Positions 13,924 through 46,920 of a stretch of DNA of 64,000 nt are shown here, piece after piece. Numbering within the stretch: position 1 is the stretch's first letter; each line of letters starts with the position of its first letter. Source of the stretch: Escherichia phage vB_EcoM_G17; sequence record MK327931.1; one strand, 5' to 3'. A program made the position numbers and the translations under genes. The notes below the pieces were generated by a model. The model was not told where the DNA came from, did no database searches, and worked only from the letters and a program-made list of their open reading frames with translations.

Positions 13924-14013
<90 letters not shown>

Positions 14014-14025
14014 AGAAGTAAGATA

Positions 14026-14126
<101 letters not shown>

Positions 14127-14178
14127 GCCAAGAGTCGGCATAGGTGCAGCACTACAAAGTTCTTCAAGCTGCTTGGTA

Positions 14179-14210
<32 letters not shown>

Positions 14211-14211
14211 T

Positions 14212-14268
<57 letters not shown>

Positions 14269-14270
14269 TA

Positions 14271-14398
<128 letters not shown>

Positions 14399-14417
14399 GC
14401 ATACTCGAAGTACCTCT

Positions 14418-14455
<38 letters not shown>

Positions 14456-14456
14456 A

Positions 14457-14821
<365 letters not shown>

Positions 14822-14830
14822 TAATACCCG

Positions 14831-15232
14831 CTAGTAGTTTAAGTCTGCGGCGTTGAATACACCAAGTGAAGTCTTACCACGTAGTTTAGGTGAAAGGACA
14901 TACTTTGTCAATTTCTTTTTACCGTACCAGCGATTGAATTCGTCTTCAGTGACATATGGGTTCTGGAAATCGTATTCGCGTTTCTTATGCAGTTCTTTAG
15001 CACGTTCTGCAATCTTGGTTCGTTGGTCTTCTGGAATGTCGAATGTATTGTTACGTTCACACCATTCGTGCTCTAATGCACCCTGAAGAAACTGTTCGGT
15101 TTCTTTGACTAGAGTGATTTTAGTCAAGCCTTTTTCGATGTTCATATAATCATCGACGTATCCATTCCAAATAACAATCTCTGGATTGCCGTCAATTTCT
15201 TGAAGCATTTTGATCAAGTCATTCTTTTTCAT
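14831..15232 (-). CDS. hypothetical protein
   Basis: 133-aa ORF. Confidence 0.5.
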   Translation of the reverse strand: MKKNDLIKMLQEIDGNPEIVIWNGYVDDYMNIEKGLTKITLVKETEQFLQGALEHEWCERNNTFDIPEDQRTKIAERAKELHKKREYDFQNPYVTEDEFNRWYGKKKLTKYVLSPKLRGKTSLGVFNAADLNY

Positions 15233-15240
15233 TTAAATTC

Positions 15241-15498
<258 letters not shown>

Positions 15499-15519
15499 TT
15501 ATACCTCTCATTGTTTATG

Positions 15520-15591
<72 letters not shown>

Positions 15592-15595
15592 TAAT

Positions 15596-16203
<608 letters not shown>

Positions 16204-16254
16204 ATAAACCTCACTATACGTAACTTACACCATATACGTCTGATTGTGGAATTC

Positions 16255-16279
16255 ATTATATCAGTACTGAACTATTTAG

Positions 16280-16283
<4 letters not shown>
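16255..16283 (-). promoter_or_regulatory. sigma-70-type promoter copy B (TTGACT-N17-TATAAT)
   Basis: Consensus -10, near-consensus -35, conserved 17-nt spacer; upstream of gene 15820..16203. Confidence 0.6.
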
Positions 16284-16693
<410 letters not shown>

Positions 16694-16702
16694 CTTTTTT
16701 TT

Positions 16703-16864
<162 letters not shown>

Positions 16865-16868
<4 letters not shown>

Positions 16869-17029
16869 AATCGTACCAGTAGTTCAATTAAGTACATTTC
16901 ATATGCTGGATCGTTGATAAGTTTATCATACAGATGTGGCTCTGAAATGAATTCCCAATGATACTTTAGCCATCTACCGATACCCGAATATCTAAAATTA
17001 ATGTCATTCATCCATTCTTCATGTGTCAT
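16865..17029 (-). CDS. MTHEEWM-family small protein (54 aa)
   Basis: Manual translation MTHEEWMNDINFRYSGIGRWLKYHWEFISEPHLYDKLINDPAYEMYLIELLVRL; tandem with next copy. Confidence 0.5.
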
Positions 17030-17190
17030 AATCGTACCATTATTTCAATAAAGAACCACGGATACACTTCATGATTCATAAGTTTATCGTATTCTGCTGG
17101 GTCTGATATGATTTCCCAATGATACTTTAGCCAACTACCGATACCCGAATATCTAAAATTAATGTCATTCATCCATTCTTCATGCGTCAT
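17026..17190 (-). CDS. MTHEEWM-family small protein (54 aa)
   Basis: Manual translation MTHEEWMNDINFRYSGIGSWLKYHWEIISDPAEYDKLMNHEVYPWFFIEIMVRL; about 75 percent identical to previous copy. Confidence 0.5.
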   Translation of the reverse strand: MTHEEWMNDINFRYSGIGSWLKYHWEIISDPAEYDKLMNHEVYPWFFIEIMVRL

Positions 17191-17213
17191 GGTTTTTAAC
17201 CTTTAATTAAAAT

Positions 17214-17290
17214 TGGCCGAGGTAGAGGGACTTGAACCCCCAACCTAGAGATTAGAATTCTCTTGCACTATCCAATTGTGCTATACCCCG
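17214..17290 (-). tRNA. tRNA-Arg (anticodon UCU)
   Basis: Acceptor CGGGGTA/TACCTCG plus G-CCA, D-arm GCACAATTGGATAGTGC, anticodon stem AGAGA/TCTCT with loop AUUCUAA, T-arm GGGGG-TTCAAGT-CCCTC. Confidence 0.7.
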
Positions 17291-17294
17291 TATT

Positions 17295-17410
<116 letters not shown>

Positions 17411-43458: not shown

Positions 43459-44103
43459 TTATTTGTAATATTTACCTAGTACTGAATAAATTTTCAATCT
43501 AAGATCTGTCCAGTTCTCAATGTATTCAAAATTACCAGTGTTCTTATACATTGAATTATGAGAACATCCCATCATAACTGACGGAATGCCAAGTCCCATT
43601 GCAGTTTCAATATTATTGATATAATCATCAATCATAAGTTTTACATCATATCTAGACTGTAAATCCTCTAGTGCTTGTTTCTTTGATTCATTCATTTCGA
43701 TAATAATAATCTCATCAAAACAGTTTTCACCAAATTCACGCATTAGGTTTACATTACGTAAAACTTCACCATAACCTTTTTTACCACATTTCGTTAGTAC
43801 TACAAATTTTTCTTTATGAAAACGATCACGTAGCTCTTGTACAATATCAACTGTATTTGGTTCGACTGGTTTTAACAACCCAAACAAATATGATTGTTGG
43901 TTGAATTGTTCAAGAATTTTTTTAACTTCTTGTTGGGGGACACCCAACCAATCGGATAAATCATATTCTAATGGGTATGGTGTTGATGGTGTGATATTAT
44001 AAGTTTGTTTTACAAACTCAGAAAGCATACCCATATGGTCCAATAGAACTTCATCACAATCAAAAACTATACAACGTGGTTTCATTACATGTTCCCCGAA
44101 CAA
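43459..44103 (-). CDS. HAD-superfamily phosphatase, likely 5'(3')-deoxyribonucleotidase
   Basis: N-terminal HAD motif I IVFDCDEVLLD (DxD nucleophile). Confidence 0.55.
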   Translation of the reverse strand: MFGEHVMKPRCIVFDCDEVLLDHMGMLSEFVKQTYNITPSTPYPLEYDLSDWLGVPQQEVKKILEQFNQQSYLFGLLKPVEPNTVDIVQELRDRFHKEKFVVLTKCGKKGYGEVLRNVNLMREFGENCFDEIIIIEMNESKKQALEDLQSRYDVKLMIDDYINNIETAMGLGIPSVMMGCSHNSMYKNTGNFEYIENWTDLRLKIYSVLGKYYK

Positions 44104-45074
44104 ATTAGGTCAATCTCACACAGTAAAGCACTAAGATTCATTTCACGGTCTGATACTGTTGCTTGCTTAACAACTGCATCACGAATTTTAACTTTAATCT
44201 TCATCAGTGTGATTTCATCAGTACTGAACATTTCAGCATTTCTGTACAAGTAAGAGAAAAATGCATCCATCTCATCATCAGGGATATTTTGTACAATTTG
44301 TTCACGCATTTGGCGAATGTTGCCTGCCTTTAATGCTTCAACAATTGCAGTACGATACCCTGCTGAATTTTCAATACTATCTTCAAGTTTTACTAGCTTA
44401 CCATCAACAACTGAACTTTGCAATACGTTTAGTGTTTTACGGAAATCAGGATAGGAAGCATTGATGTACTTTTGAACTTGTTCAACACTATCATCACTAC
44501 TCAAATCAACACCTTCTGCTAGAAGAATATTATAAATTCGAGTCATGAATTGTTCCATATCATGCTTTTCGATTGTAATAACTTGAACACGAGAAATGAT
44601 AGGTTTTTGAATTTTATGTGGTTCGTTACTTGTTAAAATAAAGCGAGCATTTTCATGATAGTCTTCCATTACACGTTTCAAACTACCTTGTGCTTTGTGG
44701 TTCATCTGCTCCATTTCTTCAAGAACAAAAATACGATATCTACCAAAACATGATAGCTTTGCTGCGGCATCGATTTTGTCACGAACAGCATCAATGCCTT
44801 CATCGGACATGTTAAGCGTGGTCACATCACTTGGATCAAGGTGTCCATTTTGAACTAGTCCATTAATTAGTACTTTGATCGCAGATGTTTTACCAGTTCC
44901 TGCTGGGCCAAAAAACCCAATATGTGGAATGTCACCAGTCTTAATCCATTCTTCCATTTTCTGGCGTAGTGCATCGTTTTTTGATACATAATCTTCCATT
45001 GATTGTGGGCGATATTTTTCAGTCCATAGTGTGGTCATTTGTATTTCCTTATGTGTACGTGTTATAGAATCCAA
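44085..45074 (-). CDS. sliding-clamp loader ATPase subunit (RFC-like, T4 gp44-like)
   Basis: RFC box LWTEKYRP, Walker A GPAGTGKTS, Walker B/DEAD-like LEEMEQM, sensor-1 ISRVQ. Confidence 0.8.
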   Translation of the reverse strand: MDSITRTHKEIQMTTLWTEKYRPQSMEDYVSKNDALRQKMEEWIKTGDIPHIGFFGPAGTGKTSAIKVLINGLVQNGHLDPSDVTTLNMSDEGIDAVRDKIDAAAKLSCFGRYRIFVLEEMEQMNHKAQGSLKRVMEDYHENARFILTSNEPHKIQKPIISRVQVITIEKHDMEQFMTRIYNILLAEGVDLSSDDSVEQVQKYINASYPDFRKTLNVLQSSVVDGKLVKLEDSIENSAGYRTAIVEALKAGNIRQMREQIVQNIPDDEMDAFFSYLYRNAEMFSTDEITLMKIKVKIRDAVVKQATVSDREMNLSALLCEIDLICSGNM

Positions 45075-45334
45075 TCGGCTGAATTATATAATAAAGCCGT
45101 GAAAAGTTCTTCTGTCATTTCCAATTGATTTAATAAAAAATTAAAAGAATTTGCCTTATTTTTAATCCCAGTACTTTCAGCTTGGGCTGATGCAACTAAT
45201 AAAACTTTAAACATATCATGTGAAACTTCATATACATATTTGGTATTTTTTCTATCTTCAAACATGAATCTTCCGTTTTTAGATACTAATGTTACATCCT
45301 TGAAACTAAATTTTCCATCATCAGTTATCATCAA
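45062..45334 (-). CDS. hypothetical protein (possible clamp-loader small subunit by position only)
   Basis: 90-aa ORF immediately downstream of the clamp loader ATPase. Confidence 0.35.
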   Translation of the reverse strand: MMITDDGKFSFKDVTLVSKNGRFMFEDRKNTKYVYEVSHDMFKVLLVASAQAESTGIKNKANSFNFLLNQLEMTEELFTALLYNSADWIL

Positions 45335-45387: not shown

Positions 45388-45714
45388 TTAACGACCAAAG
45401 GTTAGCATTTTAGTTCGTGGATCTTCATCTGAAACTAAACTAACTGCGGCTGGATAATCAACCAAGTTTAATTCAATACCATCAACTTCAATAGTTCTTG
45501 ACCATCGACCATGATCAATTAAAATCCATTGACCTTCTTTAATATCAGTAATGTCTTCGCCTACAGAATAAACTTTTGCCCAGCGAGAACGAATACCTCT
45601 AATTTTACCGTCATCGTTTGTTAAAACGATACCACCTGCTGTTTTGCGTTCACCATGTTCCAGTTCAGTTACCAGTACTTTACCTTTACATGCAGTCATT
45701 ACTTTATTAGTCAT
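45388..45714 (-). CDS. GroES-like co-chaperonin (T4 gp31 analog)
   Basis: KGKVLVTELEHGERKTAGGIVLT matches the GroES N-terminal signature; about 108 aa. Confidence 0.7.
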   Translation of the reverse strand: MTNKVMTACKGKVLVTELEHGERKTAGGIVLTNDDGKIRGIRSRWAKVYSVGEDITDIKEGQWILIDHGRWSRTIEVDGIELNLVDYPAAVSLVSDEDPRTKMLTFGR

Positions 45715-45722
45715 TTAATATA

Positions 45723-46067
45723 TTACTCCTGATCTTTGGTTCTAGCTCGACGTGGTGCTTTCTTCTCTTCAGAAACCTCAGCTTCTTGTTCTTCGGGCTT
45801 AACTTCAAAACTCTCATCATCCCATACTTCATCCGTACCATGTTCAGTACTATGAAGTTGATGTTCAGGGATATAATCAGGAATTTGCATTTCTCGTTCT
45901 TTTTCTTGAATCAACTCTTCACGAGTTTTAATAATTGTTCCACCTGAACCGATTTTATCACCACGTGCGTTTAAATTAGCATTACCTAATGCTACCTGAT
46001 GTTGATTTTGGTACTTGAGCATATCCATGTCAATTGTTGTACCACGATAAGTTGTATGTTTAGACAT
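45723..46067 (-). CDS. hypothetical protein
   Basis: 114-aa ORF, acidic C-terminus. Confidence 0.45.
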   Translation of the reverse strand: MSKHTTYRGTTIDMDMLKYQNQHQVALGNANLNARGDKIGSGGTIIKTREELIQEKEREMQIPDYIPEHQLHSTEHGTDEVWDDESFEVKPEEQEAEVSEEKKAPRRARTKDQE

Positions 46068-46130
46068 ATCAAAATCCTTTTATTGTATGTGTGATATAAG
46101 CCTACAATAAACATTATATCACATGTTTTT

Positions 46131-46649
46131 CTACCATTTCAAAAATTCGTTAACATCAAGTTCATACTTCAATGAATCTACCATATGTAGTCCAATCAAA
46201 AACAAACAGTATGATGCAACAGAGCTTCCACGACCTAGACCCCAAAAGATCTCATTTTCTTCCATATAATCAACAAGCCATATCATACATCTTAGTAGCT
46301 TTGTCATATTATAATATTCATATAAATCAAGTTCATACTCAACACGTTTTCGTGCTTCATCGGATGTGCATTTTTGTAAGAAAAAGTCACGCAGATTTAT
46401 ATTGTCGTATACTGGATCATATCGCCACAGTTCATGATTTTTATCATGCTCAATTGTATAATCCAGCATACGTTGTTCTAAGCCAAATTTTTTACAGTTA
46501 TCATTGAATTTCAACCTTTCAGGTTCATCAATTTCCTGCAATTGTAAGTACTGGATATCTGCACCGCAATTGATTGCATAAACAACTGCGTTAAGATTAC
46601 ATTTCACATCACCATTGGGACTTATAAATCTGTTTCCTTGTACTTTCAT
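46131..46649 (-). CDS. hypothetical protein with DnaE (Pol III alpha)-like segment
   Basis: C-terminal RVEYELDLYEYY...WGLGRGSSVASYCLFLIGL...LKYELDVNEFL resembles the DnaE region around the GPGRGSAAGS motif (recalled from memory, not searched). Confidence 0.4.
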   Translation of the reverse strand: MKVQGNRFISPNGDVKCNLNAVVYAINCGADIQYLQLQEIDEPERLKFNDNCKKFGLEQRMLDYTIEHDKNHELWRYDPVYDNINLRDFFLQKCTSDEARKRVEYELDLYEYYNMTKLLRCMIWLVDYMEENEIFWGLGRGSSVASYCLFLIGLHMVDSLKYELDVNEFLKW

Positions 46650-46920
46650 TTTTCTTCTTCTGGGCCTCTTCGTTGTCAGTTAGATATGAATCCATATCGA
46701 AGATACATGGATCTTCTTCGTCATAAACAGTTTTTTCTTTTTGTCCTTGGCGAAGTTCTAGTTCAGCATAACATTGATTTAAGACAGTTTGCATATTACC
46801 AATAATCATGTCGCTTAGGCCAGCAGCACGAGCAGAAGTTAAACGCATTGACTGTTCATTAATTTTTAACTGTAGTTCTTTTTCCGTCATTCCAGACGGG
46901 TCAAAAAACGGATTAAACAT
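46609..46920 (-). CDS. hypothetical protein
   Basis: 103-aa ORF. Confidence 0.4.
   Translation of the reverse strand: MFNPFFDPSGMTEKELQLKINEQSMRLTSARAAGLSDMIIGNMQTVLNQCYAELELRQGQKEKTVYDEEDPCIFDMDSYLTDNEEAQKKKNESTRKQIYKSQW

Follow-up and report, generated by a model that had tools for sequence, protein, structure and literature searches.

A split minimal form of DNA polymerase III alpha (Pol III alpha) was described in group 2.2 jumbo phages by Iyer, Anantharaman, Krishnan, Burroughs and Aravind (Viruses 2021; PMC7824862). In that system an N-terminal, nucleoside triphosphate (NTP)-binding protein and a C-terminal protein that binds Mg2+ and template are encoded by distant genes, beside a family B polymerase, and the pair was proposed to reconstitute an enzyme for one-strand synthesis or repair, its assembly being predicted only. 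The present analysis concerns a 172-aa open reading frame (ORF), hereafter the N-piece, in a 64,000-nt stretch of Escherichia phage vB_EcoM_G17 (MK327931.1; the window). An earlier note made from the sequence of the window had likened this stand-alone ORF to an internal segment of DnaE, the Pol III alpha of E. coli. Together with a second gene outside the window (the C-piece, gp488 of Escherichia phage PBECO4), it appears to be the same entity as the split enzyme of Iyer et al., all features of which were independently re-derived here: a stand-alone N unit of ~170 aa, a distant C unit, and a T4-like family B polymerase with its replisome. The two-gene arrangement has been known as a computational prediction since 2021, and no experimental follow-up of it was found in the literature.

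Around the locus, the sequence matched Escherichia phages Sharanji and PBECO4 at 100% identity and 121Q at ~94%; all three are Asteriusvirus, 'Rak2-like' jumbo myophages with genomes of ~350 kb. The N-piece corresponds to PBECO4 gp449, which carries the RefSeq label 'DNA polymerase'. The CBB genome paper (PMC5259590) took it for a Pol III alpha that is 'truncated' (172 aa vs 1120 aa), the Atu_ph07 and Sharanji genome papers simply list it as Pol III alpha/DnaE, and the two polymerase-piece genes are not mentioned in the PA5oct omics paper.

The resemblance to DnaE was borne out by profile methods. Pfam DNA_pol3_alpha (PF07733) matched aa 92-171 of the N-piece (E = 1.9e-9; 37.9 bits, with the gathering cut-off at 23.9 bits), so that the Pol III alpha profile match on which the earlier note had made its proposal depend was significant. 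PHROG 11127 ('DNA polymerase', a 171-position profile) matched the N-piece over its full length (3e-87), and hhalign placed aa 98-172 of a 33-member family alignment onto E. coli DnaE 320-394 (E = 7.5e-6). The C-terminal part does span the GPGRGS region of DnaE, as had been proposed, with GLGRGS as its counterpart. This GS motif binds triphosphate in Pol III alpha and in Pol-beta-like nucleotidyltransferases. Of the Pol-beta-like palm, aa 92-171 make up two helices and a strand, followed by the GS motif and a further helix. A model built with AlphaFold from the family alignment (mean pLDDT, the predicted local distance difference test, 86.8) showed the palm fold of the solved DnaE/PolC structures (5fku, 2hpi, 3f2b); for both halves, these gave the best structural matches and the only strong ones. 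The would-be first palm strand (aa ~133-137) was not modelled as a strand and had lower confidence, which is consistent with an N-piece that would need the sheet of the C-piece. Profile and fold methods were needed to see this relationship: with phmmer, the DnaE match among PDB sequences was non-significant (E = 1.7), and tblastn of the single E. coli DnaE sequence against the window was blank even for the N-piece ORF and is thus an invalid test for other parts of DnaE. The three catalytic Asp residues (E. coli D401, D403 and D555) are not in the N-piece chain, which stops at the equivalent of DnaE 394.

Homology searches showed that the N-piece belongs to a large family of uniform architecture. 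We found 176 relatives, 171-187 aa long apart from a few short and probably partial entries, reaching down to ~31-35% identity. When 1.84 billion representatives were searched with the profile, at least 480 clusters (50% identity) matched at E <= 1e-30; the best 150 of these were all short stand-alone proteins that extend to the end of the profile, the listed relatives being 95-196 aa and most of them ~170 aa. The family alignment contained 16 invariant columns centered on G-x-G-R-G-S-S-V-x-S, with G137, G139, R140, G141, S142 and S143 invariant across the family. All aligned N-pieces (33/33) stop 0-14 residues past an (E/D)F(L)(K/R/H) motif, and this fixed end lies 6-7 residues ahead of the position of catalytic D401, with D401 and D403 beyond it. 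A stop point fixed just before the catalytic Asp residues implies that another polypeptide provides the remainder of the active site. Beyond this family, the N-piece also matched PHROG 13169 (463 positions) and 7513 (461 positions) near their C-terminal ends, at positions 339-409 and 363-438, respectively. These alignments suggest that some other phage DnaE-like proteins, probably consisting of a PHP domain and an N-terminal palm segment, also end at or near this junction, which may be a recurrent split site.

The earlier note had recommended looking elsewhere in the genome for the remaining polymerase segments, and one was located there. The PBECO4 annotation contains two further 'DNA polymerase' genes outside the window, gp512 and gp488. 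The former encodes a 1001-aa family B polymerase (Pfam DNA_pol_B_exo1 and DNA_pol_B). The latter, 212 aa long and ~31 kb from gp449, matched phrog_11778 and had no Pfam match. Its sequence starts '...RTDIDIDF' and continues with 'PHNSGVHF', 'GYQKVDILSQS', 'IAMIRPGK' and 'KKPHAYAY', the E. coli DnaE counterparts of which are DFDVDF (401-406), HAGGVV (511-516), KFDFLG (553-558), FRPGP (638-642) and NKSHSAAY (757-764), respectively. A search with the gp488 family gave 785 matches, the listed ones being ~190-220 aa except for a shorter and probably partial entry. Residues D16, D18, D20, H48, G51, K80, D82, R149, P150, K152, K187, H190 and Y194 were invariant in the family; these include the catalytic Asp triad, D16, D18 and D82. 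A nearer candidate for the missing catalytic strand, the 114-aa ORF downstream of the N-piece ('TIDMDM', similar to DFDVDF of DnaE), was rejected because its Asp residues are not conserved ('FNMAAF' in metagenomic contig L005) and the true DxDxD partner was located elsewhere.

The two pieces are collinear with DnaE without overlap or gap, since the N-piece ends at DnaE 394 and the first C-piece motif begins at 401. Together they comprise 384 aa, compared with 1160 aa for DnaE. The spacing between DxD and HxxGV is 27 residues in the C-piece and 105 in DnaE, indicating that the thumb, which reportedly occupies DnaE 433-510 on boundaries attributed to Lamers and colleagues in 2006, is missing. 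The RPG-to-KxH spacing is likewise 35 vs 115 residues, and the C-piece stops 18 residues past KxHxxxY. Neither piece contains most of the fingers or the beta-binding, OB or tau-binding regions, and no PHP domain was matched by Pfam in the N-piece or gp488. Neither piece therefore includes the remainder of a complete DnaE (PHP, thumb, beta-binding and OB), for which the note's search for missing segments also allowed. The PBECO4 sequence covered here comprised 1-50 kb and 220-310 kb; according to Iyer et al. (PMC7824862), no other DnaE-derived domains such as PHP occur elsewhere in the genome.

Compared with bacterial Pol III alpha (E. coli DnaE; 5fku, 2hpi) and PolC (3f2b), the pair shares the palm GS motif, the Asp triad, the Lys equivalent to K553 and the finger motifs. 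It differs in that the bacterial enzymes are single chains of 1000-1200 aa, whereas the phage counterpart is divided into two chains with the break inside the catalytic domain. Full-length phage DnaE proteins (Bacillus phage G-type, 'group 3.2'; Microbacterium; SSU5-like) have a homologous palm segment, detected by tblastn with a distant N-piece at 1e-4 to 7e-4. Unlike the pair, they are single-chain, host-like proteins with a PHP domain and presumably act as the main replicase, a role that the family B enzyme fills here. Cyanobacterial DnaE is likewise a C-family polymerase encoded by two distant genes, but its split is at another site and protein trans-splicing rejoins the halves. In contrast, the phage pair has no intein sequences and its break lies ahead of the catalytic DxD.

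In order to compare the distribution of the halves, 50,697 phage records were searched with both families by tblastn. Of these, 93 contained the N-piece family and 95 the C-piece family, with near-equal tallies (N/C) in Escherichia (33/33), Pseudomonas (11/11), Klebsiella (10/11), Salmonella (8/8), Erwinia (8/8), Xanthomonas (4/4) and Yersinia (4/4) phages. Both halves were found in all divergent lineages checked, which included PA5oct-like phages, Sinorhizobium Phosso, Agrobacterium Atu_ph07 and Salicola SCTP-2, and also in Xoo-sp13, Stenotrophomonas CM1/RAS14, Vibrio 2.275.O and Alishewanella Slickus01. Identity to PBECO4 dropped in parallel for the two proteins (N/C), from 83/75% in Klebsiella K64-1/RaK2 and 81/84% in GAP32 to 43/53% in the Vibrio phage and 36/40% in Atu_ph07. 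No fused N+C form occurred among the best 150 N-piece and 120 C-piece family members listed. In Slickus01 (OQ508957.1, 141.6 kb) the two matches lie ~11 kb apart, at 68370-68840 and 79802-80014; as this genome is below the 200-kb jumbo threshold, the split enzyme is not restricted to jumbo genomes. In a separate record, Escherichia phage CMSTMSU (MH494197.1), the C-piece match was broken into four pieces and a distant N-piece query matched only residues 132-174, a pattern that points to frameshifts or misassembly in the deposited record and not to biology.

The surroundings of each half are conserved between PBECO4 and PA5oct, two phages of different virus families. Downstream of the N-piece come a small phrog_14844 protein, a GroES/gp31-like co-chaperonin and a clamp-loader AAA+ subunit, the last sharing 33% identity with PA5oct gp193 (7e-58). 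The phrog_14844 protein of the window (114 aa) matched the corresponding neighbors in BLASTP searches, at 3e-18 in contig L003, 3.5e-6 in contig L005 and 4.7e-15 for PA5oct gp195. Four distant genomes were examined, and its gene was downstream of the N-piece in these three, where the GroES-like gene also kept its position; in the fourth, contig L002, the downstream gene encodes 62 aa with no similarity to the 114-aa protein. The clamp loader was near the N-piece in one of the three distant metagenomic contigs (L002, L003 and L005). The C-piece is accompanied in both PBECO4 and PA5oct by a small ORF on the opposite strand, a virion structural protein, a DNA primase and a DnaB-like helicase. The location of both halves in replication modules supports a role in DNA synthesis. 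In addition to the family B polymerase, the PBECO4 annotation contains a clamp loader, primase, helicase, gp32-like single-stranded DNA-binding protein and UvsX/UvsY.

Taken as a whole, these data argue that the N-piece is the NTP-binding half of a two-polypeptide, minimal C-family polymerase core, a reading to which we assign a probability of about 0.8, because both pieces are homologous to DnaE/PolC and collinear with it, their catalytic residues are invariant, they are co-distributed, and their replication neighborhoods are conserved. The N-piece would provide the helices, first strand and GRGS loop of the palm, stopping just before the catalytic strand, and gp488 would provide the strand with DxDxD, the third catalytic Asp and a much reduced finger module. 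The two chains are predicted to associate non-covalently, such that the strand and GRGS loop of the N-piece complete the C-piece sheet that bears the three Asp residues. The result would be a two-metal nucleotidyltransferase site in which minimal fingers hold the template and the incoming deoxynucleoside triphosphate, and the enzyme could then act as a low-processivity DNA polymerase beside the family B replicase. With no thumb and no recognizable clamp-binding region, it should be distributive, a property that would fit gap filling, repair or short primer extension, with bulk replication presumably left to the family B enzyme.

Several observations weigh against this reading. The similarity of the gp488 family to DnaE is weak in hhalign (E = 0.025; aa 71-152 onto DnaE 544-642, collinear), and the sole PDB match of its profile was M. 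tuberculosis DnaE1 at an hmmsearch E of 1.9, in four collinear stretches, DIDID and FNKSHAAGY among them. Pfam DNA_pol3_finger matched 12 of 32 gp488-family members, below the cut-off. With sequence statistics this weak, the assignment of gp488 rests mainly on predicted fold and motif collinearity. The two genes were never adjacent in the genomes checked and hence have no operon-level link: they are 14 to 224 kb apart in seven divergent lineages (~31 kb in PBECO4, 44 kb in PA5oct, 182 kb in Atu_ph07, 14 kb in Xoo-sp13 and 224 kb in Phosso). The N-piece block also includes the GroES-like gene and two small genes of no assigned role, for which a polymerase model does not account. The binding of gp449 to gp488 and the activity of the pair are themselves predictions. 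Finally, we know of no characterized precedent in family C for a thumbless polymerase with minimal fingers.

It is more tentative to suppose that the two-chain, thumbless 384-aa core works as a DNA polymerase and has a dedicated task in the replisome, one left undone by the family B enzyme, and we are inclined to doubt it. A candidate job, by analogy with the DnaE-to-PolC relay of B. subtilis or with eukaryotic Pol alpha, would be to extend primers made by the primase before hand-off; the placement of the halves beside the primase-helicase genes and the clamp loader would fit such a job. The phrog_14844 and GroES-like proteins might be accessory or assembly factors.

Among the alternatives, the one that survives best accepts the assembled pair but takes it to be a nucleotidyltransferase of the Pol-beta superfamily rather than a templated polymerase, for example a terminal transferase, a primer-tailing enzyme or the source of a nucleotide signal. 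The Pol-beta-like fold serves many non-polymerase transferases, the pair lacks a thumb and clamp-binding region and has minimal fingers, and the phage already possesses a complete family B polymerase; even so, we consider this outcome distinctly unlikely. Less probable again, and in our view very improbable, is that the 172-aa protein acts alone as a non-catalytic DnaE-derived domain, perhaps an adaptor, a decoy directed at a host or phage replisome factor, or else a client or co-factor of the GroES-like protein, with the co-occurrence of gp488 reflecting shared phage ancestry only. The lack of any catalytic carboxylate in the N-piece would suit such a role, as would its grouping with the phrog_14844 and GroES-like genes, always far from the C-piece. 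A pure adaptor would hardly explain why conservation peaks at the triphosphate-binding GRGS loop, and this explanation also has against it that the N-piece end leaves a lone palm strand, unformed in the AlphaFold model, that the C-piece starts exactly where the N-piece stops, and that both families occur in every lineage checked, including the 141-kb phage.

The idea that the N-piece is a decaying pseudogene remnant of a full-length phage- or host-derived dnaE, in keeping with the note's gene-fragment option, with the 'truncated' label of the CBB paper (PMC5259590) and with coverage of only ~75-125 residues' worth of a 1160-aa protein, is effectively refuted by the confident AlphaFold model and by a family of at least 480 clusters that shows constant length, a fixed end and 16 invariant columns down to ~31-35% identity, with neither variable truncation nor relaxed conservation. 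Post-translational joining of the halves by a split intein, as in the naturally split cyanobacterial DnaE, is refuted by the sequence: the 0-14 residues after the N-piece end and the 1-18 residues that precede DxDxD in C-pieces (some of which start 'MDIDIDF') leave no room for intein halves, and Pfam matched no intein or Hint domain in the N-piece, even though in the related phage MIJ3 the family B polymerase contains an intein (PMC6892783). The earlier note had also asked for the flanks to be checked for intein and intron signatures; an Rfam scan of the window returned only six transfer RNA (tRNA) genes and no intron. Of the note's three suggestions (a gene fragment, a captured domain or a polymerase gene split by mobile elements), the last comes closest, the ORF being one half of a two-gene core; an intein, intron or inserted mobile element is not the cause of the split.

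Coordinates of the N-piece, its neighbors and other features. Window position = PBECO4 position - 193784; entries in other sequences are named.
Feature	Position	Strand	Size, evidence or remarks
N-piece gene, predicted N-terminal (NTP-binding) subunit of split minimal Pol III alpha	46131..46649	(-)	172 aa; = PBECO4 gp449 / YP_009150763.1 (PBECO4 239915-240433)
DnaE-homologous segment, aa 92-171 (~E. coli DnaE 320-394)	46137..46376	(-)	Pfam range, hhalign, translation check
GLGRGS motif, aa 137-142, = DnaE GPGRGS 359-364	46224..46241	(-)	Family alignment, motif mapping, translation
Conserved C-terminal end NEFLKW + stop, = DnaE ERFLNP 389-394	46131..46148	(-)	Fixed split point
phrog_14844 gene, downstream neighbor of N-piece	45723..46067	(-)	114 aa; PHROG, BLASTP
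GroES/gp31-like co-chaperonin, after phrog_14844 gene in conserved block	45388..45714	(-)	Pfam Cpn10 2.2e-5; phrog_931
phrog_16539 ORF	45062-45334	(-)	90 aa; overlaps clamp-loader gene start by 13 nt
Clamp-loader large subunit (gp44/RFC-like AAA+)	44085..45074	(-)	phrog_168 1e-78; Pfam DNA_pol3_delta2 + AAA
phrog_15348 gene, upstream of N-piece	46609..46920	(-)	103 aa; 3' end overlaps N-piece start by 41 nt
Promoter-like site	46113-46142	(-)	TTGAAA-18-TATAAT + upstream TG, 11/12 positions
tRNA genes (six, clustered)	13935-17384	(-)	Rfam RF00005, 50-70 bits
C-piece gene, gp488	PBECO4 270767-271405		212 aa
C-piece neighborhood	PBECO4 NC_027364.1 268281-271405 (L008 8281-11405); PA5oct NC_071039.1 143938-148353 (L010)		
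gp495, DnaQ/RNase T-type 3'-5' exonuclease	PBECO4 NC_027364.1 275741-276559		272 aa; Pfam RNase_T 6.7e-15

Further features of the two neighborhoods were recorded. The 114-aa phrog_14844 protein, for which Pfam gave no match, carries a conserved N-terminal motif, 'GNA.(L/M)NARGDKIG.GG'; its tail is charged and probably disordered. In L002, L003 and L005 a small protein that starts with 'MF..' lies ahead of the N-piece; it resembles the 103-aa phrog_15348 protein in helical pattern, a likeness seen by eye and non-significant in BLASTP. The 63-nt spacer between the N-piece and the 114-aa gene contains an inverted repeat (tgtgatata...tatatcaca), also read by eye. The top sigma-70-like match of a local scan spans the N-piece stop codon, upstream of the 114-aa gene; promoter-like sites in that scan were in total not above those in shuffled sequence. 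With regard to the clamp loader, no homologs of gp62 (the small subunit) or gp45 (the clamp) are recognized in such phages according to the CBB genome paper, and a helical small clamp-loader subunit is mentioned by Iyer et al. The replication cluster of the C-piece also contains the gp495 exonuclease, and the Atu_ph07 paper pairs an 'epsilon' with 'alpha'; without a PHP domain, an alpha-epsilon contact of the E. coli type cannot apply.

The N-piece is mislabelled in many records, as "DNA polymerase III alpha", "DnaE" or "truncated", and the C-piece is labelled "hypothetical" or "putative membrane protein", such that correct pairing of the two would improve the annotation of jumbo phages. The split core is a case of bacterial-type and archaeo-eukaryotic-type polymerases in one replisome, and a core of ~384 residues whose chain is broken within the nucleotidyltransferase domain would define the minimum that C-family polymerase chemistry requires.
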